DNA from: Candidatus Adlerbacteria bacterium
GTDB lineage: Bacteria > Patescibacteriota > Minisyncoccia > Phycocordibacterales > SBAW01
Reading direction: 5' to 3'
NCBI GenBank assembly: GCA_029288895.1
Contig: JARIGK010000004.1
Span: 77,621-141,620, forward strand
DNA length: 64,000 bases
The notes under the pieces are model-generated. The model did no database searches. It was not told the origin of the DNA and was given only the letters and a program-made list of their open reading frames with translations. Below, in pieces: positions 7,746-47,083 of the stretch (within the stretch, counting starts at the first letter, position 1; the number at the start of each line of letters is the position of its first letter). Made by a program: the position numbers and the translations under genes.

Positions 7746-7751
7746 GCAAGG

Positions 7752-9715: not shown

Positions 9716-10360
9716 CTATTTTTTAGCCGGAGTTTCGGGGATTGTGGCACCCTTGCTCGTGAAGATGTCGTCGATGATGCCGTACTTTTTAGCCTCATCT
9801 GCTGACATAAAGTAGTCGCGCTCGACGTCCTTCTCGATCTTCGAGAGAGTCTGGCCGGTTGCCTTCGAGAGGATCTTATTGAGGCGCTCGCGGGTAGCTA
9901 AAATGTGCCGGGCGGTGATTTCGATATCAGTTGCCTGGCCCTGCGCGCCGCCCCATGGCTGGTGGATCATCACTTCGGCGTTGGGGAGTGCAAAGCGCTT
10001 ACCTTTTGCACCTGCGGCCAAGATAATTGCTGCGGCCGATGCTGCCATACCAACGCAGACAGTCGCGACATCTGGTTTGATGTGGTTCATCGTGTCGAGC
10101 ATTGCCAAACCAGCAGACACCGAGCCGCCAGGGGAGTTGATGTAGAGCTGGATGTCCTTCTTTGGATCTTCCGATGCCAAGAACAGAAGCTGGGCGATAA
10201 CCAAGTTTGCGGTGTGGTCTTCTATCGGCCCCGAGAGGAAGATAATCCGGTCTTTAAGCAGACGCGAATAAATATCGAACGCACGTTCGCCGTACGGGCT
10301 CTTTTCAATAACCATCGGCACGAGCTGGTTGCGGATGTCGTATTTTTTGAGATGTTCCAT
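9716..10360 (-). CDS. clpP: ATP-dependent Clp protease proteolytic subunit
   Basis: '[18 protein letters not shown]...[32 protein letters not shown]' shows the canonical ClpP Ser-His-Asp context. Confidence 0.95.
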
Positions 10361-11665: not shown

Positions 11666-12202
11666 TTATTTAGCGAACTTTTGGTTGTAGAGCTCGACGG
11701 AGCGCTTCACTGCCTCCATTGCCTCAGCTTTACCTTTGATGCCGTTGATTTCTACTGGTGCTGGCTTGCCCTTGAGCGCTTTGTAGGTCTCGAGGAAGTG
11801 CTGGATCTCTTTGAGGGTGTGCTTGTTCAAATCGGCAACATCCTGCACGTCATCCCAGCGCTTGTCGTTTGTTGGTACGGCAACGATTTTAAAATCGCTT
11901 TCGCCTGTGTCGATCATTTCAATGACGCCAACGGGGCGGACTGCGACCATAATGCCAGGGTTAAGCGGCCAGGTAGTCATGACAATAACGTCGAGGGCGT
12001 CGCCATCGTCCCAAAGGGTCTTTGGTGCAAAGCCGTAGTCGTAGGGGAAGGCAGCGTCCGAGTAGTTTGCACGGTCGAGTGCAATAAGGCCGGTCTCCTT
12101 ATCTATCTCGTACTTATTGTGCGAGCCTTTAGGGACCTCGATAATGACATTAATTTCGTTCGGGACATTGTCGCCGAGCGGTACATCGTGCCAGAGATTC
12201 AT
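11666..12202 (-). CDS. ppa: inorganic pyrophosphatase
   Basis: 'DGDALDVIV' and 'YDYGFAPKT' family I PPase signatures. Confidence 0.92.
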   Translation of the reverse strand: MNLWHDVPLGDNVPNEINVIIEVPKGSHNKYEIDKETGLIALDRANYSDAAFPYDYGFAPKTLWDDGDALDVIVMTTWPLNPGIMVAVRPVGVIEMIDTGESDFKIVAVPTNDKRWDDVQDVADLNKHTLKEIQHFLETYKALKGKPAPVEINGIKGKAEAMEAVKRSVELYNQKFAK

Positions 12203-12225: not shown

Positions 12226-13428
12226 TTACTCGACCGCGATATTCTCGTCGGTTGCTGCTTCGTCCGCAGGAACTTCGCCTTGTTCATCTGCGATGGTGTC
12301 GCCGCGGGTCGACTGGATGTCGATGCGCCAGCCGGTCAACTTGGCTGCCAAACGGACGTTCTGCCCACCGCGGCCAATTGCCAAGGACTGCTGGTCTTCT
12401 GCGACTTTAATTGATGCTTTGTGTTCTGCCTCGTCCAAATCAACTGAGGTAATGCGTGCTGGCGAGAGAGCCTCTTCGATAAATGCCTTTGGATCCTCGT
12501 TCCACTCGATGATGTCGATCTTTTCGCCGCCAAGTTCCGACGTCACCGTCGAAACACGAACGCCGCGCTGGCCAACGAGCGAGCCGACTGGGTCAACATG
12601 CGGGTCTGTGGATGCCACCGCGACCTTCGAGCGCGAACCTGCTTCGCGAGCGATTGCTTTAAAGACAACGGTGCCGTGTGCTGCTTCTGGCGCTTCCATT
12701 TCGAAGAGCTTTGCCAAAAACTGTGGGTTTGCACGCGAAAGGCGGAGGTAAATACCGCGAGGTGATTCTTCTACTTGGTAGAGCAATGCGCGGATGCGCT
12801 CGCCTTGGCGGTAGCGTTCGCCTGGAATTTGTTCGTCGTACGGCAAGATGCCGGTTGCGCGGCCGAGGTCCACATAAATATTGCCGCGTTCCATGCGCTG
12901 CACGGTGCCAGTGACAATAGAACCTGCGCGCTGGCCAAATTCTGCAACAACAGACACCTTTTCTGCTTCGCGGATCTTCTGGATGATGACCTGTTTTGCC
13001 GTTTGTGCTGCGATGCGGCCGTAGTCGTCCTTCATTTCAAGCGGGAAGACGAGCTCGTCGCCAACCTTTGCGTCGCGCTTGATAAACTTTGCGTCTTCGA
13101 TAGTGATGTGCTGCTCGGGGTTAAAGCGGGGGAGCAAGAGGATAGGGTTGCCTTCCTCGTCGTACTGCTGTTCCTGCACTTCTTCCTCTGCGCCTTCTTC
13201 GACAAAGCGGACGGTGGTGTCATCAACCACTTCTTTTACTTGAGAAAATTCGGTCGAGCCGCTGTCCATGTCGAGGGTGGCACGGATAATCTGCCCGCGT
13301 TTTGCGTACTCTTTTTTATATGCAGTTGCGAGTGCAGCCTCGATTGCTTCGATGACTTTTGCACGGGGGATACCGCGCTCCTCTTCGAGCTCGCCGAGCA
13401 CTGAATTCATTACTTTGAGGTCAAACAT
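12226..13428 (-). CDS. nusA: transcription termination/antitermination factor NusA
   Basis: NusA N-terminal domain, an S1 domain and two KH domains ('GRGGQNVRLAAKLTGWRIDI'). Confidence 0.92.
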   Translation of the reverse strand: MFDLKVMNSVLGELEEERGIPRAKVIEAIEAALATAYKKEYAKRGQIIRATLDMDSGSTEFSQVKEVVDDTTVRFVEEGAEEEVQEQQYDEEGNPILLLPRFNPEQHITIEDAKFIKRDAKVGDELVFPLEMKDDYGRIAAQTAKQVIIQKIREAEKVSVVAEFGQRAGSIVTGTVQRMERGNIYVDLGRATGILPYDEQIPGERYRQGERIRALLYQVEESPRGIYLRLSRANPQFLAKLFEMEAPEAAHGTVVFKAIAREAGSRSKVAVASTDPHVDPVGSLVGQRGVRVSTVTSELGGEKIDIIEWNEDPKAFIEEALSPARITSVDLDEAEHKASIKVAEDQQSLAIGRGGQNVRLAAKLTGWRIDIQSTRGDTIADEQGEVPADEAATDENIAVE

Positions 13429-13520: not shown

Positions 13521-14297
13521 GTGAAGCGGGATATGCGGCTCTATATAACGGTAGGTGCAGGGCTTATAGCCTCGGGGCTTTTGGCATGGGCCTCCTTCTA
13601 TATATATACGGGGAAGGGGTGGCTCGTACTTGAGCGCAAAGAAACCGTGGCGGATTTTTACTTTAACCGCGGCCTCTACTATTTTAACGGCAAAGCCTAT
13701 AACCTTTCTGTTGCAGAACATGCATTTGAGCAGGCGCTGGCGCACGCCGGTGGCCCATACCCATACGCGCACTACGAGCTTGGCCGCATCTATTTTATCC
13801 ATGGCAATTTCTCGTCTGCGTTGGCAGAAATGGATATGGAGCTTGGGGCATACCCCGACCACGCAAAAGCCCACTATATGAAAGGTCTCATCTATGGGTA
13901 TCGAAAACAATACATCCAGGCCGAGCACGAGTTTATTGCGTTTAATGCGGCCGTGCCACGGCAGTGGGCTGGATACAACGATTTGGCGTGGGTTTATTTC
14001 TCTGAAGGTGCGTATGCCGATTCAGCACGTGCTGCACAACAAGGGCTTGCTGTCGTACCGGGTAACCCCTGGCTCCAAAATTCGTACGCAGTTGCAGAAC
14101 TTAACCTGGGTAAGTACAAAGAGGCAGAACTATATTTCACAAAATCGTATGATGCATTTATGGCGATGAGCGAAGAAGAGTGGGGACGGTCATACCCAGG
14201 GAACGATCCTGCACAATACGCATCAGGGCTCGAGCAGATTCGTACTGCTGTTGCGCACAACCTTACGCTTGTCCACAGTAAACTCGGGGAACAGTAG
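13521..14297 (+). CDS. membrane-anchored TPR-repeat protein
   Basis: N-terminal TM helix 'LYITVGAGLIASGLLAWASFYIY' followed by TPR-like repeats (multiple 'A..Y..G..Y...G.Y..A' blocks). Confidence 0.55.
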   Translation: MKRDMRLYITVGAGLIASGLLAWASFYIYTGKGWLVLERKETVADFYFNRGLYYFNGKAYNLSVAEHAFEQALAHAGGPYPYAHYELGRIYFIHGNFSSALAEMDMELGAYPDHAKAHYMKGLIYGYRKQYIQAEHEFIAFNAAVPRQWAGYNDLAWVYFSEGAYADSARAAQQGLAVVPGNPWLQNSYAVAELNLGKYKEAELYFTKSYDAFMAMSEEEWGRSYPGNDPAQYASGLEQIRTAVAHNLTLVHSKLGEQ

Positions 14298-14322: not shown

Positions 14323-15198
14323 ATGAAGCAGATCTTGAATGCAGATCGCGTTCGTATAGCTGGAACGTCTCTCGCTGTGTTGGCTCTCCTTGCAGGGGCG
14401 CATTTTTTTGCTGACGCTCGCTCGTCATCTGTTGAAGTCGGGTTTGCGTCATTGTCGCCAAATGGTACTGCTGGGGGGAGTATTATCCCCGCATCGTGCA
14501 GCTCTTCATTCGATTCTGGCGATGTCCAATCATGCACACGTACCAACTCGTGCGGACAATCAAACACAGGAGTTACCACCGATTGTTCGGGGACGTGCTC
14601 TGTAAGTGCTCCGGCCGAATCAGGCTGCCCACAGCCACCAACTGTCTATATATGCACTGGCGCAAACTGTACGCCGACAAGCAACTCGACTGTTACCGTC
14701 ATTGCGGGGTCGGCCGTCACTGTTAAATGGGTATGCCCATCGCCGAACACGTCGGTGTCCGGTACAAGTAACCCTGTAAATAGCGGCTTTTCATTCTCTG
14801 GCGGAGCCTTGCAAGGCACGAAAACTGCGACGATTAACCAGAGCAGTACATTTACGGTGGCCTGCGATCAAACTGGTACCCAAGCAAGCGTGACTGCGAC
14901 TGCAATTAACCCAACAGCATCTGTCACGGCAACGCCATCCCGCGTCCACTCGGGCCAAACTTCGACCATTAGCTGGTATGCATCAGGTGTCACAAGCTGC
15001 ACCTTGAATGGTCCGGGCACGGTAGATGGTCCGGTAACGGCAACGGGCGGCAACATTGCATCTCAAAGCAGCCCTCGTCAAAAAGGTACCGCAGCAATCA
15101 CAGGGCAGAGCACCTACACACTCACGTGCCAGACAAGCGGTGGGCCAAAAACCGCAAGCGTGGTCGTCAACTTAGTCCCTGTTGAGATAGAACTCTAA
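14323..15198 (+). CDS. secreted/surface Ser/Thr/Cys-rich protein with Ig-like repeats
   Basis: Internal ATG 14323 gives a signal-anchor 'RIAGTSLAVLALLAGAHFFA'. The remainder is Ser/Thr/Cys-rich with repeated 'TVT..S...TC' beta-strand-like units. The stop overlaps the start of the downstream ATPase (TAAATG). Confidence 0.55.
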   Translation: MKQILNADRVRIAGTSLAVLALLAGAHFFADARSSSVEVGFASLSPNGTAGGSIIPASCSSSFDSGDVQSCTRTNSCGQSNTGVTTDCSGTCSVSAPAESGCPQPPTVYICTGANCTPTSNSTVTVIAGSAVTVKWVCPSPNTSVSGTSNPVNSGFSFSGGALQGTKTATINQSSTFTVACDQTGTQASVTATAINPTASVTATPSRVHSGQTSTISWYASGVTSCTLNGPGTVDGPVTATGGNIASQSSPRQKGTAAITGQSTYTLTCQTSGGPKTASVVVNLVPVEIEL

Positions 15199-27974: not shown

Positions 27975-27992
27975 GCGGGCTTTTCTTTTACC
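27961..27992. terminator. bidirectional terminator (gcccgccgc-tta-ggcgggc + TTTTCTTTT)
   Basis: Hairpin overlapping the stop of the small ORF. It also serves the convergent minus-strand gene that ends at 27988. Confidence 0.65.
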
Positions 27993-28671
27993 TAAATGTT
28001 GCTAGCTGCGCTTCCGCGAGAGGGATATCTTCGTGGCGATTGATAGGCAACCACGCATCTTGTTGCTCGACATGCACAGGGTTTTTTGCCGCCAAGGCAT
28101 TAACAAGATCTGGTAAAAGATATTCTTTCAATGTTTTTGATTCTTCCATTGTTTGCGCAAAAATCTGCTCGTCGAGCACCATCACTCCGGTTGATACTAA
28201 GTTACTTTCTGGCGCGGCGGGCTTTTCAGTGATGCGCGCGAGCGTTCCATCTTCTTTCATTGATATAACTCCGAAGCGTTCTGGATGGTCGCTTGGTGCC
28301 GCGAGTACCGCGTAGGTATGGGTTGCCATACGCGCAAGTGCCTCACTGCCGTGGATGTCGTCGCCCAGCATAACGAGAAACTTCCCAGACACGTACGGTT
28401 TGCACTGGGCAAGTGCGTGCGCCGTCCCTCGCGGTTCGTCTTGCATAACGTAGCGCACGGGGAGGTTGTAGAAGACGTCTCCGCAGTGCGCGCGAATTGC
28501 TTCATGGAGATGGGAAACGACAAGAATAAGTTCGTCGACCGAAGAGGGGAGGGCGCCCACGATATGGTCTAAAAGTGGTTTGCCGGCAACTTCGATGAGT
28601 GGTTTTGGGATGCGTTCTGTCAGAGGGAGCAACCGAGTGCCTTTGCCTGCGGCTAAGATGACGCATTTCAT
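27988..28671 (-). CDS. sugar-phosphate nucleotidyltransferase (NTP_transferase family)
   Basis: 'ILAAGKGTRLLPLTERIPKPL' is the G-x-G-T-R nucleotide-binding signature. 227 aa short form. Confidence 0.75.
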   Translation of the reverse strand: MKCVILAAGKGTRLLPLTERIPKPLIEVAGKPLLDHIVGALPSSVDELILVVSHLHEAIRAHCGDVFYNLPVRYVMQDEPRGTAHALAQCKPYVSGKFLVMLGDDIHGSEALARMATHTYAVLAAPSDHPERFGVISMKEDGTLARITEKPAAPESNLVSTGVMVLDEQIFAQTMEESKTLKEYLLPDLVNALAAKNPVHVEQQDAWLPINRHEDIPLAEAQLATFR

Positions 28672-30998: not shown

Positions 30999-32006
30999 AT
31001 GAAGAAATTAACCGCGGCGCTTTTTGCTTTATTGGTATTGATATCTGCATCTCCCGTATCGGCAAATAGTTACATTGCTCCAACCTCGTGTCCGCAATTT
31101 TCTGTAAATCTCTACATGGGTGCGCGTGATGCGGCCATGGGTGGGCAGGTGAGCCAACTCCAGCAATTTCTCAATCAGCGTTATGGCAACCAGCTTGTCA
31201 CCGGCTACTTTGGTGTGATGACCGCGGCGAATGTATCGCGCTTGCAGCAAGAGCTCGGTATTGCTCGCGTGGGCGGCGTGGGCCCTCTGACGCGCGCAGC
31301 AATCGCAAAACTTTGCAGCACAAGCGGTACGCCCACGCCGACAGCAGGCAGCCTCTCTGCGTACCCATCGTCGGGCACGGCACCTTTGGCTGTGAACTTT
31401 ACCGCGACTGTACCGGACACGAACCAATACATCATCGACTTTGGTGATGGTGCGAACAGCGGCCCTATTGGTGCAGGCGTCGTGGCACACACATACCAAA
31501 ACCCTGGCACGTACACCGCGAACCTCTCGCGCTATATCTCGTGCCTCTACGCGACACCAGTGCACTGCATGATCGCCGTGATGCCGATTGCGTCAGCGAC
31601 GGTCACTGTTGCGGCACCTCAAACACAAACAAATACGCTCCAAGTCACAAGCCCTGCGGCGGGGCAGATATATACACGCGGCAGCCAGATGAACATCAGC
31701 TGGAGCGGCCTCGTGCGCGAAACATTTGCCTACGAGCCACATGCAAGCATTGTCGACCTCTACACGGCAGCAGGTACTAAAGTGGGTACCATCGCAATCA
31801 CGAATGATTTGAAAGGTAGCTATGACTGGCATATCCCTGGCTTTCCGCAAACTATGATGTGCACGATGCAATATCCAAATGCACTCTGCGGCACCAATGT
31901 GCAGGGCCAGTACTACATCCAAGTCACCGCGGTTGTGGGCAATGGCTTTGGCACAAACGAAACAGTCATTGGTACAGCGCAAAGCGGCGTCTTCGGAGTT
32001 CAATAA
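30999..32006 (+). CDS. secreted protein: signal peptide + peptidoglycan-binding (PG_binding_1) + PKD domain
   Basis: Signal peptide 'MKKLTAALFALLVLISASPVSA'. 'QLQQFLNQRYGNQLVTGYFGVMTAANVSRLQQELGIARVGGVGPLTRAAI' is PGBD-like. 'PLAVNFTATV...IIDFGDG...HTYQNPGTYTANLS' is a PKD domain. Confidence 0.65.
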   Translation: MKKLTAALFALLVLISASPVSANSYIAPTSCPQFSVNLYMGARDAAMGGQVSQLQQFLNQRYGNQLVTGYFGVMTAANVSRLQQELGIARVGGVGPLTRAAIAKLCSTSGTPTPTAGSLSAYPSSGTAPLAVNFTATVPDTNQYIIDFGDGANSGPIGAGVVAHTYQNPGTYTANLSRYISCLYATPVHCMIAVMPIASATVTVAAPQTQTNTLQVTSPAAGQIYTRGSQMNISWSGLVRETFAYEPHASIVDLYTAAGTKVGTIAITNDLKGSYDWHIPGFPQTMMCTMQYPNALCGTNVQGQYYIQVTAVVGNGFGTNETVIGTAQSGVFGVQ

Positions 32007-32065
32007 ACAAAAAAGATATCCCCACACACCGCTTGTCGGAAGCGGGGAAGAGAATACACTAGTAA

Positions 32066-32112
32066 GTAACAGGGCATCCCGGAAACGGGAGGCCCTTTCT
32101 CTTTTATTTTTG
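32066..32112 (+). terminator. rho-independent terminator (gggcatcccg-gaaa-cgggaggccc + tttctcttttatttttg)
   Basis: Strong GC hairpin followed by a long T-rich tract. Confidence 0.7.
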
Positions 32113-32125
32113 TAACTTTCTATCG

Positions 32126-34120
32126 ATGGAAAAATTCGCACGTGCACTCGAACTCGCAACCGCCTACTTCGCAGTAGGCGTGTTGATGGTGCTGGTCGCA
32201 GGCACCGCCGTGCCGCCTTCAGGCGCGCCGTTTGCTGCAGCCGCAGTGGCGGGATGTACGCCTCCATCATTTTCGAACCTCACTATCACCGCAGCCAATT
32301 TGTATACGCCCTGGAGTGTGCCGCTCTTGTCGGCCATCAATGATGCGTCGTTCCCAACTGTAAGTGCCACGGGTTTGCCGCCGGGTATTACACTCAAAGA
32401 CCAGACCACCACGCTCACCACAGGCGCTGGCTCCGTGCTCCACACCTGGGTCTTGGATGGTGCGCCGACGCAGCTTGGCACCTACACCATCACGGTAACT
32501 GCGCAGAATAGCTGCGGTGGTGCGTCGACCGTTATCACACTTCCGATCAATAACACCCAGACTGCCGCGGGGACTGTCTCGTGCCCGGCGGGGTACGCGG
32601 GCGCATACCCCAACTGTGTTTCAAGCTCGGGCCCGAGTGTATCGTTTGACCAAGCATCGCTTGTGGCAACAAGTTCGACAGCGATAATTACCGGCACGTC
32701 GCGCACGTCGTCGGTAAAATTGACCGTCCAAACTCCGAACGGCATTACCTACAGTAGCGAAACTGCACCTGTCGGCGGTGGGCGCTGGACAATCGTGCTC
32801 AAAAATTTAACGAGTGGCCTCTATTCGCTCTATTTGTACGACGGCAATAATTCGCCATTGTTGCCGGGCAGCTTAACCGTTACGTTGCCCGGTGATACCA
32901 AGCCTGCGCAGAACTTTTCCAGCGGTTCTAGCGAACCGGGACAAAGTTTTACTCCGGCATCAGCGAAGGCGTCTGCGCAGGCAACAAGGACTTCAACGTT
33001 TTCATGCAGCAATATTCCTACAACGCTCAAAATAGGGAGCCGCGGAAGCACGGTGCTTGCACTGCAAAAATCACTTATCTCAATAGGCGCATTGCCGTCT
33101 GATTCAGCAACCGGCTATTTTGGCCAAGCGACAAATTCGGCGGTCGCACGCCTGTGTCCATCAATTTCGGCAACAACCGTGCAGACGACAACAAGTTTGC
33201 CGGCATGCCCGAAAGTCGCCGTACCGCCGTGCCAGCATGGGACGCTTGTATCGCTTGGGGCCGACCAAAACCACTGCACGCTTGGTTATATGTGCCAGCA
33301 ACAGCCGGGCTCGAACTGCCCATCGGTGACCGCACCTCTGTGTTCGGGCGGGACAATAGTTTCAAGTGGCACAGACATAAATGGCTGCTCGACCGGCTAT
33401 TCGTGCCAGAAAGTGTCATGCCCCACTGTGCCGCAGCCAACCTGCGCACCAGGCCTGCGGCTTGTAACAGGCCCTGATGCAAACGGATGCGCAACCGTGT
33501 CCTACTGTATTGATGGCAACGGAAATACAACAAGCGTCACAGGCGCCTCGTCTGCCACAACAAATAATTCAACCAGCATCTTTAGTAATTTCTTTGGCGG
33601 TTTGGGCTCTATAGGTTCGTCATTTAGCAGTTACTACAGTTCAATTTTTGGTACCCAACCGACAGCAGGTGTCACCACATCGGCGGCAGGGAGTGCTGCT
33701 GCTGCAAGTAATGCGTCGCAGGCGTACACGACGCTTTCTTCGAAATATACCAACGCAACACTTACCAAGTGCACCGCTACCGATGGTAGCGTGAGTTATA
33801 CCGCAAAAGGGTTTAACAACGACGGCACAAGCTATGAAATCCAAACCTACCCCGTTGGAGTAACGCCAAGCGGCGCGTGTCAGATAACGCAATACACTGG
33901 CCCTGCAGCACTGCGTGGCAGTAATAGCATTGGAGGAACAGTGACAAGCCCAAGTAGTGGCGTGGGTGCAAGTAGCTATGGCGGCGCTGATGGAAGTACT
34001 GGCGGCACTGCCGGGGCAGACGCTTCATCCGGCAACGCAAGCGCAGCAGATGCATCAGCCGCTGCAAACGGCGACTCGAGCGGCGATGGCACAGGCGGCG
34101 GAACAGGAGGTACCTATTAG
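32126..34120 (+). CDS. large secreted/wall-associated protein with internal PG_binding_1 domain, three ~31-aa Cys-repeats and Gly/Ser/Ala-rich tail
   Basis: N-terminal hydrophobic anchor. 'STVLALQKSLISIGALPSDSATGYFGQATNSAVARL' is PGBD-like. The repeat C-P-x-V-x3-C-x2-G-x-V/L-x3-G-x-D-x-N-x-C-x2-G-Y-x-C-Q occurs three times. C-terminal 120 aa are G/S/A/D-rich. Confidence 0.6.
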   Translation: MEKFARALELATAYFAVGVLMVLVAGTAVPPSGAPFAAAAVAGCTPPSFSNLTITAANLYTPWSVPLLSAINDASFPTVSATGLPPGITLKDQTTTLTTGAGSVLHTWVLDGAPTQLGTYTITVTAQNSCGGASTVITLPINNTQTAAGTVSCPAGYAGAYPNCVSSSGPSVSFDQASLVATSSTAIITGTSRTSSVKLTVQTPNGITYSSETAPVGGGRWTIVLKNLTSGLYSLYLYDGNNSPLLPGSLTVTLPGDTKPAQNFSSGSSEPGQSFTPASAKASAQATRTSTFSCSNIPTTLKIGSRGSTVLALQKSLISIGALPSDSATGYFGQATNSAVARLCPSISATTVQTTTSLPACPKVAVPPCQHGTLVSLGADQNHCTLGYMCQQQPGSNCPSVTAPLCSGGTIVSSGTDINGCSTGYSCQKVSCPTVPQPTCAPGLRLVTGPDANGCATVSYCIDGNGNTTSVTGASSATTNNSTSIFSNFFGGLGSIGSSFSSYYSSIFGTQPTAGVTTSAAGSAAAASNASQAYTTLSSKYTNATLTKCTATDGSVSYTAKGFNNDGTSYEIQTYPVGVTPSGACQITQYTGPAALRGSNSIGGTVTSPSSGVGASSYGGADGSTGGTAGADASSGNASAADASAAANGDSSGDGTGGGTGGTY

Positions 34121-35451: not shown

Positions 35452-35490
35452 AGAAAGGCCCCGCAGAAATGCGGGGTTTTTCGTTCTTAT
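35452..35490. terminator. bidirectional terminator (aaaggccccgca-gaaa-tgcggggttttt)
   Basis: GC hairpin flanked by A- and T-runs after tuf. Confidence 0.75.
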
Positions 35491-35708
35491 ACGCAGCCCA
35501 TGGCTTTAGGAACTCGGGGCGTAAAGTCTCTGGGCTTGTGACTACGTGAGAGCCTAAGGCTCAAAACATCATAGGCGCTCAGGTTGTAGTCCTTCGCGTG
35601 CTGCCAGGCGAGCCTCTGGTCGCCCTTGTCTCGGGCTTCCTTGGCTAGCCTCATCCCATCCTGGTGTTGCTTCACGATTGCGAACTGCTTCTCAGCATTG
35701 ATATACAT
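35487..35708 (-). CDS. hypothetical small basic protein (74 aa)
   Basis: Start at Met 35708 (MYINAEKQF...) with GAGGAGG 5 nt upstream on the minus strand. The track's longer form (35747) lacks an RBS. Confidence 0.4.
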   Translation of the reverse strand: MYINAEKQFAIVKQHQDGMRLAKEARDKGDQRLAWQHAKDYNLSAYDVLSLRLSRSHKPRDFTPRVPKAMGCV

Positions 35709-35765
35709 CGCCGCCTCCTCTAATTTCCTCTGTCGCCATCCTAACACGAGAGATTTAATTTAGCG

Positions 35766-36313: not shown

Positions 36314-36342
36314 TTGCTATTTTCATGAAACTATGCTATATT
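36314..36342 (+). promoter_or_regulatory. strong sigma70-type promoter TTGCTA-N17-TATATT
   Basis: TTGCTA 36314-19, TATATT 36337-42. It would drive a ~450-nt untranslated leader before rplC. Confidence 0.55.
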
Positions 36343-36348
36343 GATGAG

Positions 36349-36790
36349 GTTCGGGTGGCCCCACCGCCCGGATTTCTACCCTCACTGGGCGGCAGGTATT
36401 CTGCTGTGTTGCTCCCCACATCCCCCGGAAGCAACCCTCGAGTAGGATGCTGTCGTCCAGTGAGACCTCGTTTCGGTCTTTTTGAAATTTATTTCTACTG
36501 CAGTCTGGGAGACGCAGAGGAGGAGCTCGTCGAAGCAAGGTGGCCAGGAAACTGTCCTCTGGGCAAGTCGATAGGATTCTTTGGTACCTTGCTTTGGCGG
36601 GTTTCCCTTCTCTCAAACTACACAGTTCTTTGTTTGTTCGAGCCCTCGCCATTTGGTGAGGGTTTCTGCTTTTTGGGCTCCATACATTGGACCACCCTAT
36701 GTATTTGCATAATTTATACACCTCGTGTATAGTCTCGTGGACTCTTACATAGAGTTGATCCACGTCCCGGGCGCCAAGCCCAGAGGGACC
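36349..36790 (+). other. ~440-nt GC-rich structured untranslated region between rpsJ and rplC (candidate leader/ncRNA)
   Basis: No convincing ORF: both overlapping track ORFs are Pro/Gly/Cys-rich and run into rplC. Multiple nested GC hairpins, e.g. ccgccc...gggcgg and gagccc...gggctc (36651-36691). Confidence 0.25.
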
Positions 36791-38403: not shown

Positions 38404-39252
38404 ATGAAATCCTATAAGCCATACACAAAATCGCGCCGCCACATGACCGGCATCAACTTCCGCGAGAAGTTGTCGGGCCATGCGCCGCACAAGGCACTCG
38501 TCTCGGGTGGCAAGCGCTCTGTGGGCCGCAACAACGCAGGCCGCATTTCGGTGCGCCACAAGGGCGGTGGCCACAAGCGCCTCTTCCGCGACGTCGACTT
38601 TACCTACAAGAAGATGGTTCCGGCAGTTGTTGAAACTGTCGAGTACGATCCGAACCGCTCGGGCTTTATCGGCCTCGTGCTCTACAAGGACGGCGAGCGC
38701 CGCTACATCCTCCTCCCTCGCACGGCGAAGGTTGGCGACACTGTCATGACCGGCGAAAACGTCCCAGCAGTACCAGGCAACCGCATGCCTCTCAAGTCGA
38801 TGCCAATTGGCGCGTTTGTTTACAACGTCGAAATCAAGCCGGGCAACGGCGGCAAACTTGGCCGCTCGGCAGGTACCTACATCGAACTTATCGCGCGCGA
38901 CGCAGGCTATGCGGACTTGAAGATGCCGTCATCAGAAGTCCGCAAAGTTCTCGAAACCTGCTACGCAACCTTGGGCGAAGTCTCGAACGACGAACACCAC
39001 TTGGTGAAGATTGGTAAGGCCGGCCGCTCCCGCTGGAAGGGTATCCGCCCTACAGTCCGCGGTACCGCGATGAACCCAGTAGACCACCCGCACGGCGGCG
39101 GTGAAGGCCGCCAGGGCCGAGGTTTGCGCCGCGCAAAGTCTGCGTGGGGTAAACCAACAGGCAAGGGCCAGAAGACCCGCACGCCGAAGAAGTACTCAAA
39201 CTATCTCATAGTGTCTCGCCGCAAAGTCGGCAAGCGCTCACAGCAAGCCTAA
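38404..39252 (+). CDS. rplB: 50S ribosomal protein L2
   Basis: 'RPTVRGTAMNPVDHPHGGGEGR' uL2 signature. Confidence 0.96.
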   Translation: MKSYKPYTKSRRHMTGINFREKLSGHAPHKALVSGGKRSVGRNNAGRISVRHKGGGHKRLFRDVDFTYKKMVPAVVETVEYDPNRSGFIGLVLYKDGERRYILLPRTAKVGDTVMTGENVPAVPGNRMPLKSMPIGAFVYNVEIKPGNGGKLGRSAGTYIELIARDAGYADLKMPSSEVRKVLETCYATLGEVSNDEHHLVKIGKAGRSRWKGIRPTVRGTAMNPVDHPHGGGEGRQGRGLRRAKSAWGKPTGKGQKTRTPKKYSNYLIVSRRKVGKRSQQA

Positions 39253-39262
39253 TATCAAAAAG

Positions 39263-39298
39263 AAAAATCCCCGCCCTAAGGCGGGGATTGTCGTTGTT
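39263..39298. repeat. direct repeat copy L: aaaaATCCCCGCC-ctaa-GGCGGGGATTGTCGTT (terminator-like hairpin)
   Basis: 9-bp GC stem. Apart from the loop it is identical to the copy at 39716-39749. Immediately after the rplB stop. Confidence 0.7.
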
Positions 39299-39339
39299 GT
39301 GTCGCGTGGTAGTATCGATGCGGACAAGGAGGCTTACTA

Positions 39340-39684
39340 ATGCCAATTAAATTTCTGATTGTCGCAGGCGCTACACTGCTCTTGGGCAGCTGGATTTTCT
39401 CATCGTATCGGTGGCACAATCGTTATGATCAGCTTCGAAGTCTCATGAAGTTCAACATAGGCGACCGAGTCGTTAGGATGGGGCGCGTAGACATACACAG
39501 CCCCATCGATTACACGATGGACCCGTACCTTCCGACCCGTATGGGGCAGTGTATCGATATTGCTGTGCGAAGAGCCACTGGCACGGTAGAGAAATTCAAT
39601 ATCGTGCGCTGTTCTTCCTTGTGGGACGGCGGTCCCTTCCGGAACATGACTTCGGAGGACTATCATCGACGTGTTGTGTGCTAA
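39340..39684 (+). CDS. hypothetical membrane-anchored protein (114 aa) inserted between rplB and rpsS
   Basis: AAGGAGG 8 nt upstream of the ATG. N-terminal TM 'FLIVAGATLLLGSWIFSSY'. Putative promoter TTGTCG-N16-TAGTAT (39289-39316). Followed by an agccc/gggct hairpin + TTTTTCTTTTT (39685-39711). Confidence 0.5.
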   Translation: MPIKFLIVAGATLLLGSWIFSSYRWHNRYDQLRSLMKFNIGDRVVRMGRVDIHSPIDYTMDPYLPTRMGQCIDIAVRRATGTVEKFNIVRCSSLWDGGPFRNMTSEDYHRRVVC

Positions 39685-39715
39685 AGCCCGTAGAGGGCTT
39701 TTTCTTTTTCCAAAA

Positions 39716-39751
39716 ATAAATCCCCGCCGAAAGGCGGGGATTGTCGTTAGA
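39716..39751. repeat. direct repeat copy R: aaaATCCCCGCC-gaaa-GGCGGGGATTGTCGTT
   Basis: Second copy of the rplB-proximal hairpin element. On the minus strand it is followed by 'tttatttttgg', serving as the terminator of the minus-strand gene 39747..39953. Confidence 0.7.
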
Positions 39752-39953
39752 TGCCCAAGTAATGGTTTTCGCAAAAACCTTCGTTCTCGGGAAGCTGCTT
39801 TGCAGCAATTCCTTGAATGTAGGCTTGGACGACTTCCGGCGCTGGCATATCCATGCCCCTCATGCGTGGAAACACGAGGTCGACACCTGCGTCCAGGGCA
39901 TCGACGCGCTCTTTTGCAGTGGCTTTTGAAAGTTCGACTTCACGATCGCCCAT
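39747..39953 (-). CDS. hypothetical small protein (68 aa) encoded antisense within the r-protein cluster
   Basis: GAGGAGG 6 nt upstream of the ATG on the minus strand. Preceded by a 24-codon Lys-rich micro-ORF (MNSVERAVQNTKKLLKKAKKKKKL, 39961-40035) that has its own GGAGGG RBS. Minus-strand promoter-like TTGATG-N17-TATGGT near 40100. Confidence 0.45.
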   Translation of the reverse strand: MGDREVELSKATAKERVDALDAGVDLVFPRMRGMDMPAPEVVQAYIQGIAAKQLPENEGFCENHYLGI

Positions 39954-40089
39954 CAGTTCCTCCTCTAAAGCTTTTTCTTCTTCTTGGCCTTCTTGAGAAG
40001 CTTTTTCGTGTTTTGGACAGCCCGTTCAACACTGTTCATAACACCCTCCCTCTGGTAAAGCCAATGTCCGAGATAAGAATACACCATAT

Positions 40090-40118
40090 TTGACTATTCC
40101 TGGGGCATCAAGTAGTAT
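40090..40118 (+). promoter_or_regulatory. sigma70-type promoter TTGACT-N17-TAGTAT upstream of rpsS
   Basis: TTGACT 40090-95, TAGTAT 40113-18. ~100-nt leader with hairpins before ATG 40221. Confidence 0.6.
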
Positions 40119-40220
40119 CTGTGTACTTCCGTGCCGCAAGGTCTAGCCGCTCGCTGGCTACGACGGGCAGGGAATTTAATTTTGGCAAAGTCTGCGTTAG
40201 CAGACGTCAAATATACAAGA

Positions 40221-40571
40221 ATGGCACGATCGCTTAAAAAAGGCCCATACGTAGACGAAAAGCTTCTCAAGAAGATTGAGGGCAAGAAACCCCAGACAAC
40301 CGGGGTTATTAATACATGGGCACGCCGCAGCCAGATTGCCCCTGAAATGGTGGGCTTTAAGTTTGGCGTCCACAACGGCAAAACGCATATTGAAGTGTTG
40401 GTCAACGAAGACATGGTAGGCCACCGCTTGGGCGAATTCTCACCAACCAAGAAGTTCCTCCGCCACGGCGGTAAGATGCAGAAGGAAATGGAAGCAAAGG
40501 CTAAGGAGTCTGAAATTGCATCTGCACAGGCTGCAAAGGCTGCTGGCGACGCTAAGGATAAGAAGAAATAA
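40221..40571 (+). CDS. rpsS: 30S ribosomal protein S19 (with Lys/Ala-rich C-terminal extension)
   Basis: '[20 protein letters not shown]...[18 protein letters not shown]' uS19. The ORF-track start at 40131 is upstream of the true Met. Confidence 0.93.
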
Positions 40572-43694: not shown

Positions 43695-43710
43695 TTTTCT
43701 TACTCCTCGA

Positions 43711-43746
43711 AAAAGCGACCTCCTCACCGAGGTCGCTTTTTCTTTT
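43711..43746. terminator. cassette hairpin 1: aaaaaGCGACCTC-ctcacc-GAGGTCGC + TTTTTCTTTTG
   Basis: 8-bp stem and T-run immediately after the rplE stop. First of six hairpin+TTTTTCTTTT elements. Confidence 0.7.
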
Positions 43747-43788
43747 GGGATTGTGTATGGTTTTGAAAGTTTTACGAGAGGTGTTTAT

Positions 43789-44025
43789 ATGCCTGATGGT
43801 TCGTTGCCAGAAGTACCACCGCCTGGGAAAAAGAGATACAGGATGGTGTGTCGGGACCGTGGGGTCAATCCTTTCAAGAGTCGATCCTTTGAAATGGACA
43901 GACCCCTACAGAGACACACCAAGACTGTCGATGTGGATGAACATATCCCATTTGAGCAGGTCGAGAAGTGGGCTCGCGAAGAACAAGGGCCCTACGAGTT
44001 TCTCAAGCTTGAAGTGGTGAGTTGA
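43789..44025 (+). CDS. hypothetical protein (78 aa), cassette 1 of rplE/rpsN insertion
   Basis: GAGAGG 8 nt upstream of ATG 43789. Basic N-terminus with an acidic C-terminus. Confidence 0.45.
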   Translation: MPDGSLPEVPPPGKKRYRMVCRDRGVNPFKSRSFEMDRPLQRHTKTVDVDEHIPFEQVEKWAREEQGPYEFLKLEVVS

Positions 44026-44034
44026 ATATTGCAA

Positions 44035-44064
44035 GGCGATCCATTCGGGTCGCTTTTTCTTTTG
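44035..44064. terminator. cassette hairpin 2: GCGATCC-attc-GGGTCGC + TTTTTCTTTTG
   Basis: Same architecture as hairpin 1, with a G-U pair in the stem. Confidence 0.65.
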
Positions 44065-44137
44065 GGGTAGGGTAAGGTGGCGGCAGGCAGCGTATCGCCT
44101 GTGTTCCTTTCAACCATCAACTAAAGGGATATCTGTC

Positions 44138-44677
44138 ATGACTGCCAATACGGCACGAAACGACGGTAATAAAAAGAAGTCTAAACAAAGGCTCTCGGCT
44201 GAACAGACTGGCGTCCTCCAACAGAGGCTCCAGGATGTTATCCGCCGCGTCGAGGAGGGGAAACTTTCTTTTGACGTTGTGGCGCAATCGCTTCAGCGTA
44301 TCTCGGAAGAGACATTCATCTCTCACTACAAAGACAAAAAGCCGAAGGAGACGTGGGAGATTTTCACACGTCCGCCTCTGGCCGAGCGGAGAAAGTCGTT
44401 GTCGCCTTATGGCATGACGCTTCCGCACAAGGTCAAACGTCTTGAGTTTCCGGAACGGAATCCCGAGCGGATAATGATGGAGCTTTGGGAAAAGGAGAAT
44501 ATCCCGAAACCTCAAATAAATCACGGTCGTGTACCGGTCAACGCCATCCTTAACGCCGTTGAACTGCTGCCCCAGGATGTGCAGATTGTGGCCGCGACCG
44601 TCCAATGGTTTGGGACAAATATTGGTATGTCCTACCTTGGCGAATTTTCCCGAGCGGCAGAATTGCGGGGTTTCTAA
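44138..44677 (+). CDS. hypothetical protein (179 aa), cassette 2
   Basis: AAGGGA upstream. Basic N-terminus (KKKSKQR). No recognisable domain. Confidence 0.45.
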   Translation: MTANTARNDGNKKKSKQRLSAEQTGVLQQRLQDVIRRVEEGKLSFDVVAQSLQRISEETFISHYKDKKPKETWEIFTRPPLAERRKSLSPYGMTLPHKVKRLEFPERNPERIMMELWEKENIPKPQINHGRVPVNAILNAVELLPQDVQIVAATVQWFGTNIGMSYLGEFSRAAELRGF

Positions 44678-44689
44678 AACAATGTACAT

Positions 44690-44721
44690 TGGCGACCCAT
44701 TCGGGTCGCTTTTTCTTTTGA
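44690..44721. terminator. cassette hairpin 3: GCGACCC-attc-GGGTCGC + TTTTTCTTTTG (preceded by 12-bp palindrome caatgtacattg)
   Basis: Near-identical to hairpin 2. The palindrome lies at 44681-44692. Confidence 0.7.
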
Positions 44722-44779
44722 TGACAAGGATGGTTAGATGGTTTATGCTCGTGCCAGGCACATTTTGGAGGAATAGAAC

Positions 44780-45295
44780 ATGCCGGAGAAGAGAATTCTG
44801 CAGTTGGTCGGCTCATGCGGCGAATGCCCGCGCTATCAGTATTACAGTGGCGGAACGAGTAAGTGCATCGAAGTCGACCAGATTGTTCGCGACAAGCATG
44901 TCGTTGCGCCGTTCTGCCCGCTGGCGCCGTATCCTGCGGACATTATTGCCGATCAGGCCGAGACAATTCGGGTCATGCGGGAAGGGAACGATACGCTGTT
45001 CGTCTTCCTTCTTCTGGAGCGCATTGGCAAAAAGCTTAATGCAATCCGCAAGGATGGGACTATGGTGCTCGAAATTCCGCTGAAGGAAGAAGGCAAAACT
45101 GTTTGCCTCGATCTCCACTATGTGGACGAGGAAAGGAGTCGGCTATTTCCTCGCCCAGAAATTCGCTTCAAGTATCAGGACTCGTGGTACATCCTGGACA
45201 TCGAGGCGAAGCCGCCGATTCTCAAAAAGGTGGTTAGACATCCGGGCGGCAGCGAAGCTGGAGAATTGTACGAGTCTGTCCCGCTGGCAGTCTGA
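44780..45295 (+). CDS. hypothetical protein (171 aa) with N-terminal Cys cluster, cassette 3
   Basis: GGAGGA 7 nt upstream. 'CGECPRY...C...C' is a possible Zn-binding N-terminus. Confidence 0.45.
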   Translation: MPEKRILQLVGSCGECPRYQYYSGGTSKCIEVDQIVRDKHVVAPFCPLAPYPADIIADQAETIRVMREGNDTLFVFLLLERIGKKLNAIRKDGTMVLEIPLKEEGKTVCLDLHYVDEERSRLFPRPEIRFKYQDSWYILDIEAKPPILKKVVRHPGGSEAGELYESVPLAV

Positions 45296-45300
45296 CAAAC

Positions 45301-45333
45301 AAGCGACCTTTGAGAGGGTCGCTTTTTCTTTTG
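45301..45333. terminator. cassette hairpin 4: GCGACC-tttgaga-GGGTCGC + TTTTTCTTTTG, fused to promoter TTGACA-N16-TAGTAT (45331-45358)
   Basis: The T-run of the terminator runs directly into a consensus -35 TTGACA. TAGTAT at 45353-58. Confidence 0.7.
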
Positions 45334-45389
45334 ACAAAACGTGCACTGCAAGTAGTATGTGCAGCGGATTCACAAAACAGGAGAAGCTC

Positions 45390-46022
45390 ATGCTGAGCGT
45401 AGAACAAAGGTTTCTTGGTGCCTACAAGGGCGCACTTTTAGAAGCCATCATGCAAGAGGATTCGAAATTCGTACTGGATGCCAAGATCGAATCGCTGTAT
45501 GACTGGCTCAATCTGATGAATTGGGGCAATGTTGAAACTTGCCGCGAGACAGCCTCGCTCATCGAGTTGCCCATTTTATTTTCGTTCCGGTTCCAGCGTA
45601 ACCCTGCGGCGCGTATACGCTTCACTCGGCATCAATTCCGTGATTGCTCGACGGAAGTGCAGCGTGATGCGCACGATTTAGCACTGTTGCGCAGTGCCTA
45701 TCTCGCTGAGTTGCTCTATGGAAAGGGTGAAGAGGAGGCGGTCAGCTTCGTTCTCCGTCAATACGATACGGACTTCCTTTTTACCCGCTCCATCAAGGAG
45801 CTGGAAGAGCGCGCTCCATTACTCGACCTTTCGGGGTTAAAAACACCTCGTACTTGCAAACTGTACATAGAAACGAAGATGTTCAGTGGCGCGTGTTATG
45901 GAGCTGTGCACGGACCCGACTACCTGCATCTTGCCCGGTGGCAAGAAGGCCGCATCGAACACAACCCTTTAGTGAAAGAGGTTGGCCTGAGGCTTTTCAG
46001 GGAAGCGTACGGATACACATAG
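45390..46022 (+). CDS. hypothetical protein (210 aa), cassette 4
   Basis: AGGAGA 6 nt upstream of ATG 45390. The track's longer version (45120) overlaps cassette 3 and crosses hairpin 4, so it is rejected. Confidence 0.45.
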   Translation: MLSVEQRFLGAYKGALLEAIMQEDSKFVLDAKIESLYDWLNLMNWGNVETCRETASLIELPILFSFRFQRNPAARIRFTRHQFRDCSTEVQRDAHDLALLRSAYLAELLYGKGEEEAVSFVLRQYDTDFLFTRSIKELEERAPLLDLSGLKTPRTCKLYIETKMFSGACYGAVHGPDYLHLARWQEGRIEHNPLVKEVGLRLFREAYGYT

Positions 46023-46029
46023 CAGTTCT

Positions 46030-46063
46030 TAAGCGACCCACCCGGGCCGCTTTTTTCTTTTTA
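46030..46063. terminator. cassette hairpin 5: GCGACCC-acc-cGGGCCGC + TTTTTTCTTTTT
   Basis: Imperfect version of the same element, with one mismatch. Confidence 0.55.
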
Positions 46064-46216
46064 TAAAATATGGGGCTGGTGGTAGGGGATTATTGATATT
46101 TTTGAAAAATGTGTTAAAAAAGCTGCAGCTGATGGTAGTGGCATTCCGCCATATCCACTGACAGCTCTTTGTCGTCCAGCCTACCCTGTGCCAATGACGG
46201 GGATGGTTATAGCGCA

Positions 46217-46891
46217 ATGGAGAAACTAATGCGTGCTGTGTCTCGTGACCAAGCGACTAATCTTATTGGGCGTATTGCAACGACTATAAATTTTGGACCT
46301 CTGGATTCCCAATTCGTCCAAAAGGCAATCATCGAAGGCCTCGACGACGAGGAATTCGGTGACAACGTCACCAGCTTTCTCAAGAATGGGGCCAAAAGAG
46401 TCATCGCCCTTCCGAAATCTCTGGACATCAACCATCATCTACGTCCGGAAAACGTAGACCAGGTGTCGCAACTCTGGAAAGGTCCGTTTCCGAGCGATGG
46501 GACTCGAGGTAATGTAGTGGACCACCTTCCAGACTTGCAATCCCTGGAATTTTCCAGAGTTGCCTTTAGTCGTCCAAAAGGGAGCCAGCTCGCTGCTGGT
46601 CATATCTACCAGGAATTAGTGGGGCAAGTGCCGCTCCTTGGCTTTCGGGTAGGGATGGCGCTTATGCGGGACTATAAAGAGCGTGGCAAAGATTCTGCGC
46701 TTGAGTGGTATCGTGCTACCTACGACATTCGGGACATGACATTCATGGGCACAGTCCTGCGCCGACCAAGTGACGGGTACCCATTCTTTTATGGCCTGCA
46801 GCATATAAATAGTGTGTGGGATTGGGGTTCCGTGGGGCTTTGGGATCTCACGTTTTCGGAGCAGGAGGCTATACCTATTTACGTCCCCTAG
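46217..46891 (+). CDS. hypothetical protein (~225 aa), cassette 5
   Basis: Start 46217 or 46229, the latter with GGAGA 6 nt upstream. No recognisable domain. Confidence 0.42.
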   Translation: MEKLMRAVSRDQATNLIGRIATTINFGPLDSQFVQKAIIEGLDDEEFGDNVTSFLKNGAKRVIALPKSLDINHHLRPENVDQVSQLWKGPFPSDGTRGNVVDHLPDLQSLEFSRVAFSRPKGSQLAAGHIYQELVGQVPLLGFRVGMALMRDYKERGKDSALEWYRATYDIRDMTFMGTVLRRPSDGYPFFYGLQHINSVWDWGSVGLWDLTFSEQEAIPIYVP

Positions 46892-46904
46892 AGCTGGGGT
46901 TTGT

Positions 46905-46940
46905 TCGGGCCCGCGGTAAAACGCGGGCCTTTTTTCTTTG
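46905..46940. terminator. cassette hairpin 6: GGCCCGCG-gtaaaa-CGCGGGCC + TTTTTTCTTTG
   Basis: 8-bp GC stem and T-run immediately after the cassette 5 stop. Confidence 0.7.
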
Positions 46941-46942
46941 GT

Positions 46943-46971
46943 TTGACTTATAGGGTGGGGTCGAGTATATT
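46943..46971 (+). promoter_or_regulatory. sigma70-type promoter TTGACT-N17-TATATT upstream of rpsN, followed by short leader hairpin agccc-gttt-gggct + T7 (46979-47000)
   Basis: TTGACT 46943-48, TATATT 46966-71. The attenuator-like hairpin sits right at the predicted 5' end of the transcript. Confidence 0.6.
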
Positions 46972-47083
46972 GATGCCTAGCCCGTTTGGGCTCCTTTTTT
47001 TCGTCAGGTGCCGCTTAGTCGCAAGGCGAGGCAAACCCACGAGATCATAACTCCCTAGGTATAAGGGGAGTAACCATTCAAAA

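Follow-up and report, generated by a model that had tools for sequence, protein, structure and literature searches.

The order of the ribosomal-protein genes in the S10-spc cluster is taken to be among the most stable in bacteria, and these genes form the backbone of the concatenated-marker trees of the Candidate Phyla Radiation. In contig JARIGK010000004.1 of a Candidatus Adlerbacteria bacterium (assembly GCA_029288895.1), 968 bp lie between the stop codon of rplB (39250-39252) and rpsS, and this spacer holds genes on both strands together with two copies of one hairpin. How did such a locus arise, and which part of it is new? "The window" here denotes the whole 64-kb stretch that was analysed, coordinates are those of the window unless a locus is named, and loci used for comparison carry L numbers. 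The answer that we consider likely is that the spacer is the joint of two transcription units, and that one further unit, coding for a protein of 114 residues (ORF114), was added to it by a single duplicative event that copied the hairpin behind rplB. The left part of the locus is composed as follows (SD, Shine-Dalgarno sequence; pI, isoelectric point).

38404-39252, plus strand: rplB (ribosomal protein L2), final gene of the upstream unit; Pfam Ribosomal_L2_N and Ribosomal_L2_C, 81% amino-acid identity to L001
39257-39295, both strands: hairpin copy 1, with an A-tract, a 10-bp GC stem (39266-39289, loop CTAA) and then TTGTCGTT; predicted bidirectional intrinsic terminator right after rplB
39288-39315, plus strand: predicted ORF114 promoter, TTGTCG (39288-39293), N16, TAGTAT (39310-39315), with a TG at 39307-39308 giving an extended -10 (TGG-TAGTAT)
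39340-39684, plus strand: ORF114, 114 aa, pI 9.7, N-terminal hydrophobic helix; SD AAGGAGG at 39326-39332
39683-39710, plus strand: predicted intrinsic terminator of ORF114, AAAGCCC-GTAGA-GGGCTTT (hairpin 39683-39701) then TTCTTTTT; -10.6 kcal/mol
39712-39748, both strands: hairpin copy 2 (stem 39719-39742, loop GAAA); predicted to end the minus-strand ORF68 unit and to serve ORF114 as a back-up stop

The sequence AAATCCCCGCC-N4-GGCGGGGATTGTCGTT is found twice in the 64 kb (39265-39295 and 39718-39748) with no mismatch outside the loop, as the initial annotation of this DNA had pointed out, and the search for other copies that it had called for returned none in the window at up to three mismatches (shuffles: 0 expected). 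Extended without gaps, the repeat covers 37 nt at 89% identity (39259-39295 and 39712-39748), and it reaches about 40 nt if a 2-nt indel in the A-tract is allowed. One period measures 453 bp, that is, one hairpin plus the ORF114 cassette. The two copies differ at four positions, two in the loop (CTAA in copy 1, GAAA in copy 2) and two in the A-tract, with none among the 20 stem and 7 tail positions (Fisher p = 210/66045 = 0.003, computed by hand). Both have the GC stem-loop and U-tract of an intrinsic terminator, the stems folding at about -21 kcal/mol with z scores of -3.7 to -5.2 across the copies (copy 1: about -21 kcal/mol on either strand, z -4.5 and -5.2). In the terminator scan both copies pass on the minus strand, and copy 1 passes on the plus strand too; the minus-strand U-tracts (UUUUUCUUUUUG and UAUUUUUGG) are better than the plus-strand version (UUGUCGUU) in both copies, the tails of copy 1 reading UUUUUCUUUUUG on the minus and UUGUCGUUGUUG on the plus strand. 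The stop codon of the opposite-strand gene ORF68 shares the last two bases of copy 2.

Which arrangement is the older one is indicated by the relatives. In most of them, the succession A-tract, GC hairpin and T-tract starts no more than a few bases behind the rplB stop codon, and two such hairpins are orthologous to that of the window: AAAAAGATCCCCGCC-GAAA-GGCGGGGGTTTTATTTG in L086 (core ATCCCCGCC-GAAA-GGCGGGGG), and ACCCCCGCC-TTCC-GGCGGGGGTCGTTCGTTC in L093 and L094 (core CCCCCGCC-TTCC-GGCGGGGG, tail TCGTTCGTT), where the stop codon of the minus-strand gene adjoins the hairpin directly. L086 and L093 have one hairpin after rplB, then an opposite-strand gene and no ORF114; a homologue of ORF114 is absent from L086, L088, L090, L093, L095 and L096. 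In the MAFFT alignment of the window with L086, positions 39246-39712 (one repeat period) are left unmatched, and the L086 hairpin is paired with copy 2, which has the same GAAA loop. Since L086 and L093 hold a single hairpin and no ORF114, the window has one extra 453-bp period, and the proposal of the initial annotation that the flank was duplicated by an insertion is supported. On this comparison, only the ORF114 cassette and one hairpin copy (the 453-bp period) appear to be specific to this lineage, and the hairpin is the putative ancestral bidirectional terminator of rplB, with orthologues in L086 and L093. It resembles known bidirectional terminators between convergent genes in being an A-tract/GC stem/T-tract palindrome at a conserved position, between rplB and ORF68; unlike them, it stands in the window in two copies, and its plus-strand U-tract has decayed in both.

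Other identities for the hairpin were discarded. The Rfam matches BSnc120 and Hrs1 lie well under the gathering threshold and reflect generic terminator features, and the notion of a mobile hairpin family was dropped after a metagenome scan gave two Bacteroidales-like contigs which have the 31-nt hairpin in common and nothing else. L081 (1961-1991) and L082 (5353-5383) carry the identical 31-nt hairpin AATCCCCGCCGGCTGGCGGGGATTGTCGTTT between convergent genes, and are otherwise mutually unrelated; its stem and tail match the window hairpin, a likeness that is probably coincidence or terminator convergence.

The AAGGAGG ribosome-binding site and the TTGTCG-N16-TAGTAT promoter-like site that the initial annotation had assigned to ORF114 are both in place. 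The predicted -35 sits inside the repeat tail of copy 1; the promoter is below the threshold of the generic promoter scan and was read from the sequence. A word-indexed homologue search returned the query itself only, and exact-protein look-ups of the window L2 and ORF114 matched no contig. Exhaustive phmmer comparison found one true homologue, P0007 (112 aa, 41% identity, E 1e-12), carried by three short scaffolds of the European Nucleotide Archive (L083-L085); another match, P0008, is a repetitive protein aligned over a short stretch and was set aside as non-homologous. Homology between the window and L083 spans the extended -10, where TGGTAGTATC aligns with TGGTACTATC upstream of the L083 homologue, through the terminator, which aligns with that behind the homologue, and on through its tail and CCAAA; the unit is therefore a promoter-gene-terminator block of about 420 bp. 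The terminator tail had been presented as a type shared with the array between rplE and rpsN; TTTTTCTTTT is the ordinary terminator tail of the window genome (also at 3286, 27962, 22229 on the minus strand and 20835 on the minus strand), and hence no hallmark of a module.

Divergence of ORF114 from its L083 homologue is of the coding type, with differences of 0.47/0.38/0.67 at codon positions 1/2/3 (coding order 3>1>2) and about 0.65 nonsynonymous substitutions per site, synonymous sites being saturated (S19 0.07 for comparison); its codon usage favours the reading frame over the other frames just marginally. The protein is predicted to be membrane-anchored. Its AlphaFold2 model is confident for helix 3-44 alone, and the single-sequence AlphaFold models of ORF114 and ORF68, with predicted local distance difference test scores of 51 and 65, are too poor for a fold search. 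ORF114 has no match above noise in Pfam, PHROG, PADLOC or PDB, and viral-contig scans for the ORF114 and ORF68 families were negative. Phage morons, known from the lambdoid-phage literature, are stand-alone promoter-gene-terminator units placed between operon genes. The ORF114 cassette is like them in being compact, with a predicted promoter and terminator of its own and a strong SD, in lying between genes that are adjacent in most bacteria, and in occurring sporadically among relatives and bringing no mobility gene. Unlike morons, it resides in a cellular ribosomal-protein cluster and not in a prophage, had no viral relatives in those scans, and has a duplicated host terminator on its two sides, which is no defining moron feature. 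By analogy, then, the cassette would behave like a phage moron in a cellular hot spot.

To the right of copy 2, on the opposite strand, lie the 68-aa ORF with its GAGGAGG site and the 24-codon lysine-rich ORF that had been described there from the start.

39953-39747, minus strand: ORF68, acidic, 68 aa, pI 4.6; SD GAGGAGG at 39958-39964
40039-39965, minus strand: 24-codon lysine-rich upstream ORF MNSVERAVQNTKKLLKKAKKKKKL, pI 10.9; SD GGGAGGG at 40044-40050
40083-40111, minus strand: candidate promoter of the minus-strand unit, TTGATG-N17-TATGGT, picked by eye, back to back with the rpsS promoter

In the word-indexed database, ORF68 found the query itself only. Family links nonetheless join it to L083_67 (E 7e-13), L093_101 (E 2e-4) and L096_78 (E 2e-3), and within the family L096_78 is linked to L083_67 (E 1e-5) and to L086_69 (E 5.6e-6). 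L083, L086, L093 and L096 all have a gene of this family at the corresponding position, on the minus strand; these genes evolve fast and share an N-terminal SKATAKE..DALDAGVD motif, and between the window and L083 the differences at codon positions 1/2/3 are 0.38/0.28/0.69, again a coding pattern (3>1>2). A small ORF precedes the family member in three loci, with 44 aa in L083, 74 aa in L093 and 58 aa in L086, and the first two are homologous to each other (E 8e-9); the 24-codon ORF of the window has low-complexity, non-significant similarity alone and is conserved in position only. ORF68 has no Pfam or PDB match, and a toxin-antitoxin test of the small ORF together with ORF68 found no recognisable domain in Pfam, PADLOC or PDB and no match to a known toxin-antitoxin family. 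The distribution of the family argues that the ORF68 unit is an old resident of the spacer, and the initial view of a single module with genes on both strands does not hold, the ORF68 unit being the older part, with family members in L083, L086, L093 and L096.

L083 offers another route to the present order. There the sequence of elements is an ORF68-like gene (minus strand), the 44-aa ORF (minus strand), an ORF114-like gene (plus strand), a terminator, the rpsS promoter and rpsS: the same genes on the same strands as in the window, with ORF114 on the opposite side of the ORF68 unit. Tandem duplication of a block in the L083 order (hairpin, ORF68 unit, ORF114, rpsS promoter), followed by loss of the first ORF68 unit and of the second ORF114, predicts exactly the order hairpin-ORF114-hairpin-ORF68 and makes a recombinase unnecessary. 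It nevertheless requires three events, two of them clean deletions without remnants, in a locus where copy 1 is separated from the ORF114 start by only 44 nt, and the small ORF from the rpsS -35 by about 50 nt. A hairpin in the L083 order is hypothetical, and parsimony does not favour an L083-like ancestor, L086, L093 and L096 being without ORF114 altogether. We regard this course of events as unlikely, and favour a single duplicative insertion because three relatives keep the ancestral layout without ORF114.

On its right side the spacer ends in signals that belong to rpsS.

40090-40118, plus strand: predicted rpsS promoter TTGACT-N17-TAGTAT, from the promoter scan; ancestral in the clade
40121-40220, plus strand: rpsS leader, with a conserved stem-loop (40121-40187), then AUUUAAUUUU, then a second hairpin; fold -38.2 kcal/mol, z -2.9
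40221-40571, plus strand: rpsS (S19), ATG at 40221, opening the next unit; Pfam Ribosomal_S19, E 3e-32

Sigma-70-like promoters of the type TTGAC[ATCG]-N16-17-TA[GT][TA]AT, followed by a hairpin and a U-run, are predicted before rpsS across the clade, with 9-11 of 12 consensus positions in 14 of 17 loci (L001-L014, L083) and 6-8 of 12 in L086, L087, L088, L090 and L058. Even L001, with a gap of 171 bp and the rplB stop 13 nt from the -35, keeps a consensus rpsS promoter. With promoter and leader before rpsS in most relatives, rpsS would head its own transcription unit throughout the clade, and the promoter, being ancestral, is not a consequence of the insertion. The TTGACT-N17-TAGTAT site at 40090 had been interpreted as re-initiating rpsS transcription after the insertion; the site is there, and the re-initiation has to be given up, as promoter and leader stand in nearly every relative, L001 included. 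The leader stem-loop of about 55 nt is followed by AUUUAAUU and has 17 pairs, six of them with compensatory changes. It recurs at L086 1330-1396, L087 1293-1358, L088 4933-4999, L089 21-87 and L090 4940-5006, and its covariance model matches solely upstream of rpsS in L086-L091, including L089, on which it was not trained (78.7 bits). More distant relatives have just a short GC hairpin and a U-run at this position, and Rfam gave no relevant match at E up to 10. The stem-loop is a candidate ribosomal-protein leader or attenuator.

From these pieces a history can be proposed. The ancestral layout would have been rplB, one bidirectional hairpin, and a minus-strand unit of two genes (a small ORF and an ORF68-family gene) ending at that hairpin and transcribed divergently from rpsS. 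In the lineage of the window, a unit of about 420 bp (extended -10 promoter, SD, ORF114 and terminator) would then have come to lie between hairpin and ORF68 stop codon, in a duplicative event that left a full hairpin copy on each side of it; the direction of this event and its mechanism are what we infer, the anatomy and the presence or absence of its parts what we observe. The outcome would be three insulated units: copy 1 would end rplB transcripts, probably leakily, block antisense transcription into rplB and lend its tail as -35 to ORF114, whose own transcripts would end at their terminator, and copy 2 would end the transcripts of the ORF68 unit.

Repeats of a similar kind were found elsewhere. 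In the window, a 30-nt direct repeat with one mismatch (44035-44064 and 44691-44720) flanks the second unit (cassette iB) of the rplE-rpsN array; only three pairs of such size and spacing exist in the whole window, two of them being those at 39265 and 44035, and shuffles gave none. In L090, 34 nt with one mismatch (8379-8412 and 9226-9259), comprising the 3'-terminal 24 nt of rplE and a further 10 nt, flank a two-gene cassette, and the structure is repeated in the independent assembly L091. In L009, a 65-nt terminator repeat with two mismatches (1605-1669 and 2396-2460) surrounds a gene pair, AbrB-type antitoxin-like and RelE-type toxin-like by an eye call only. Most inserts of L002-L014 have no flanking direct repeats, and the signature is therefore no general rule. 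Scanned against Pfam, neither the cassette nor 40 other ORFs of the window yielded a transposase or integrase domain, the repeat analysis of the window showed no inverted repeats at the cassette ends, and the insert ends of the three other cases share no motif. Variable repeat lengths and insert ends without a common motif argue against a sequence-specific recombinase; the candidates that stay are a duplicative insertion without sequence specificity and a tandem duplication with subsequent loss.

A non-autonomous transposable element with a long target-site duplication would account for a direct repeat of the target around a discrete insert, for the single target copy in relatives without the insert, and for a homologous cassette elsewhere in the spacer of L083. 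The cassette is unlike such elements in that it has no transposase, no terminal inverted repeats and no second copy within 64 kb. Its repeats are also far longer than usual: target-site duplications of transposable elements measure a fixed 2-14 nt, whereas the present repeats are variable at 30-65 nt (31-40 nt here; 30, 34 and 65 nt in the other cases), so that neither an insertion sequence nor a miniature inverted-repeat transposable element (MITE) fits. With no common end motif in the three other cases either, we hold this origin to be extremely unlikely. Independently of this locus, a MITE-like element of about 145 bp with inverted ends TATGCCCGGCAGGACAATTTCGAATT ... AATTCGAAATTGTACTAGCCGGGTATG lies at three cluster junctions of L007 (L23|L2, S19|L22 and L14|L24, at 9864-10006, 11989-12131 and 14663-14809), and in L058, a metagenome-assembled genome labelled Saccharibacteria, an element of about 100 nt (GCATGCGAAA...) precedes six different ribosomal-protein genes (6560-6665, 7725-7811, 8524-8614, 9275-9376, 10512-10621 and 12946-13056).

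Integron cassettes are the other familiar model, since they too are ORFs separated by related palindromes, and the cassette here is bounded by direct hairpin copies. An integron-like site-specific recombination would use the hairpin as its site, where a recombinase encoded elsewhere would cross over at the G|TT in GTCG|TT, and would make the rplE|rpsN arrays cassette arrays. Both copies do end in GTCGTT, copy 2 running on as GTTAGAT, which fits GTTRRRY, and the five rplE-rpsN ORFs each have a related hairpin (GCGACC...GGTCGC) behind them, the array holding four exact copies of GGTCGCTTTTTCTTTTG. Copy 1, however, reads GTTGTTG and misfits the core motif; an attC site has 57-141 bp with RYYYAAC/GTTRRRY cores and extrahelical bases, whereas the hairpin here is a perfect one of 24 nt (10-bp stem, 4-nt loop) with no inverse core. 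The hairpins have the form of simple intrinsic terminators, and integron ORFs are promoterless, whereas the cassettes have promoters of their own, ORF114 with an extended -10 promoter-like site that is conserved in L083. No integrase was seen among the scanned ORFs, and no tyrosine recombinase or IntI among the 40 of the window's ORFs that the scan covered. The L090 repeat is the rplE 3' end without a hairpin, and the repeats range from 30 to 65 nt. Such a mechanism is very unlikely in our judgement.

A single duplicative insertion stays the preferred account. One might generalise it: in Patescibacteria, transposase-free duplicative addition of stand-alone cassettes at operon-joint terminators, leaving 30-65-nt repeats of the target (in most cases of the terminator), would repeatedly build arrays of fast-evolving ORFans and toxin-antitoxin pairs in the S10-spc cluster, by way either of a novel recombination system acting in trans or of template switching provoked by the hairpin. 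We offer this wider statement as speculation, and on balance we doubt it.

Several points weigh against the proposed insertion. The ORF114-less relatives L086 and L093 are just about 81% identical to the window in rplB DNA, so the insertion carries no date, and loss in those lineages would be a less likely alternative. The L083 contig stops inside its ORF68-like gene and does not reach the rplB side, where a hairpin would be expected; L086_69 is linked to the window ORF68 only transitively (shuffle p 0.057 in direct comparison; E 0.04 with hhalign). The loops differ at two of four positions while the stems are identical, a poor fit to a very recent simple duplication unless selection maintains the stems. 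Promoters and terminators are assigned throughout by consensus prediction; copy 1 has a poor U-tract on its plus strand, and the candidate minus-strand promoter is weak (8 of 12 consensus positions, below the scan threshold). Neither an enzyme nor a mechanism for a duplicative insertion was identified in the window scans. Finally, the junction order across the repeats is known from assembled sequence alone, and as the window comes from a metagenome-type assembly, an assembly artefact at the short repeat has to be considered. This we find scarcely credible: the repeat has just 31 nt and its copies can be told apart because loop and A-tract differ, all elements carry intact signals, ORF114 lies beside rpsS-type sequence independently in L083-L085, and the two independent assemblies L090 and L091 show a like repeat structure.

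Why should the cassette lie at this very place? The organism is a patescibacterium of the Paceibacteria type: the window L2 protein places it in Patescibacteria (best locus a Minisyncoccia metagenome-assembled genome, 81%; next Zambryskii-, Kaiser- and Paceibacterota), and the S19 proteins nearest to its own carry the annotations Adlerbacteria, Paceibacterota and Minisyncoccia. When every junction of the L3-to-SecY cluster was measured in 17 Patescibacteria loci, the L2|S19 gap exceeded 300 bp in 15 of the 17 (median 761, range 78-4039 bp) and the L5|S14 gap in 8 of 14, and the other 17 junctions did so in no locus. The expanded junctions of the window are the same two, L2|S19 with 968 bp and L5|S14 with 3389 bp. 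The initial annotation had expected 10-30 bp between rplB and rpsS, a figure that does not apply to this clade, and had spoken of antisense transcription inside a ribosomal operon, which is better described as a divergent/convergent unit between two operons. A gap above 300 bp, variable content and an rpsS promoter of its own together mean a joint between operons, not an operon interior. The rplB|rpsS gap holds a MazE/PemK pair in L007, a DUF5674 gene in L003, a diacylglycerol kinase gene in L011, a gene for a 1007-aa PKD/CARDB protein with an IS200-like Y1 transposase (Y1_Tnp) in L014, and ORFans elsewhere; in an all-against-all BLAST of gap genes, the only shared family link was that between the window and L083. 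In L014, a perfect 24-nt palindrome TGTGCAACCTCCGGAGGTTGCACA lies on both sides of the Y1 transposase gene (13998-14021 and 14765-14788), resembling repetitive extragenic palindromes with their associated transposases (REP/RAYT-like).

As surveyed, rplB|rpsS together with rplE|rpsN appears to be a clade-wide hot spot that gathers lineage-specific small genes. Chromosomes are known to have integration hot spots with core genes on either side, and SAR11 has a hypervariable region inside its rRNA operon. L2|S19 and L5|S14 are like these in holding differing accessory genes across streamlined lineages; unlike them, they lie inside the S10-spc cluster and hold mostly single small ORFans or toxin-antitoxin pairs, with no integrase islands. 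The rplE-rpsN gap of the window (43695-47083) contains five ORFan units of about 78, 179, 171, 210 and 224 aa, each with an SD and each ending in the related terminator GCGACC...GGTCGC, with GGTCGCTTTTTCTTTTG in four exact copies; the five have no Pfam, PHROG or PADLOC match. The predicted rpsN promoter (TTGACT-N17-TATATT, 46943) and the rpsN leader with hairpin and U-run (46931-47037) are conserved as DNA with L092 (87%) and L001 (79%), so rpsN would also head its own unit. Further joints of the str/S10 region in the window have inserted genes too: a 73-aa ORF with an AGGAGG SD between tuf and rpsJ (35487-35709, minus strand), a nucleotidyl-transferase gene between rpsG and fusA (27988-28671, minus strand), and genes for a PG_binding/PKD protein and a 664-aa protein without assignment between fusA and tuf (30999-34120, plus strand). 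Between rpsJ and rplC (36314-36675), a promoter-like TTGCTA-N17-TATATT with TG is followed by about 327 nt without a convincing ORF and a terminator at 36640-36665; the region folds at -149.5 kcal/mol on the plus strand (z -7.8) versus -110.7 on the minus strand (z -2.6), has no Rfam match, no tmRNA and no match in the compared loci, and is a candidate structured non-coding RNA.

The concept of hot spots and that of bidirectional terminators are already well known. No literature on this locus type was found, and as far as the literature found shows, three things are seemingly undescribed: the two hypervariable S10-spc joints in Paceibacteria, the signature of terminator duplication around transposase-free cassettes, and the rpsS leader motif, by which the analysis also gives a candidate rpsS leader RNA. 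For the biology of the group, the data indicate that the S10-spc cluster of Paceibacteria is split into separately promoted units with two fixed hypervariable joints, and that small genes without known relatives collect at these joints of an otherwise very conserved cluster. The joints would account for a class of seemingly odd insertions in Paceibacteria assemblies, and rplB|rpsS and rplE|rpsN offer a defined and easily found place for studying gene gain in tiny streamlined genomes, where the duplication of terminators around promoter-gene-terminator units may point to an undescribed insertion process.

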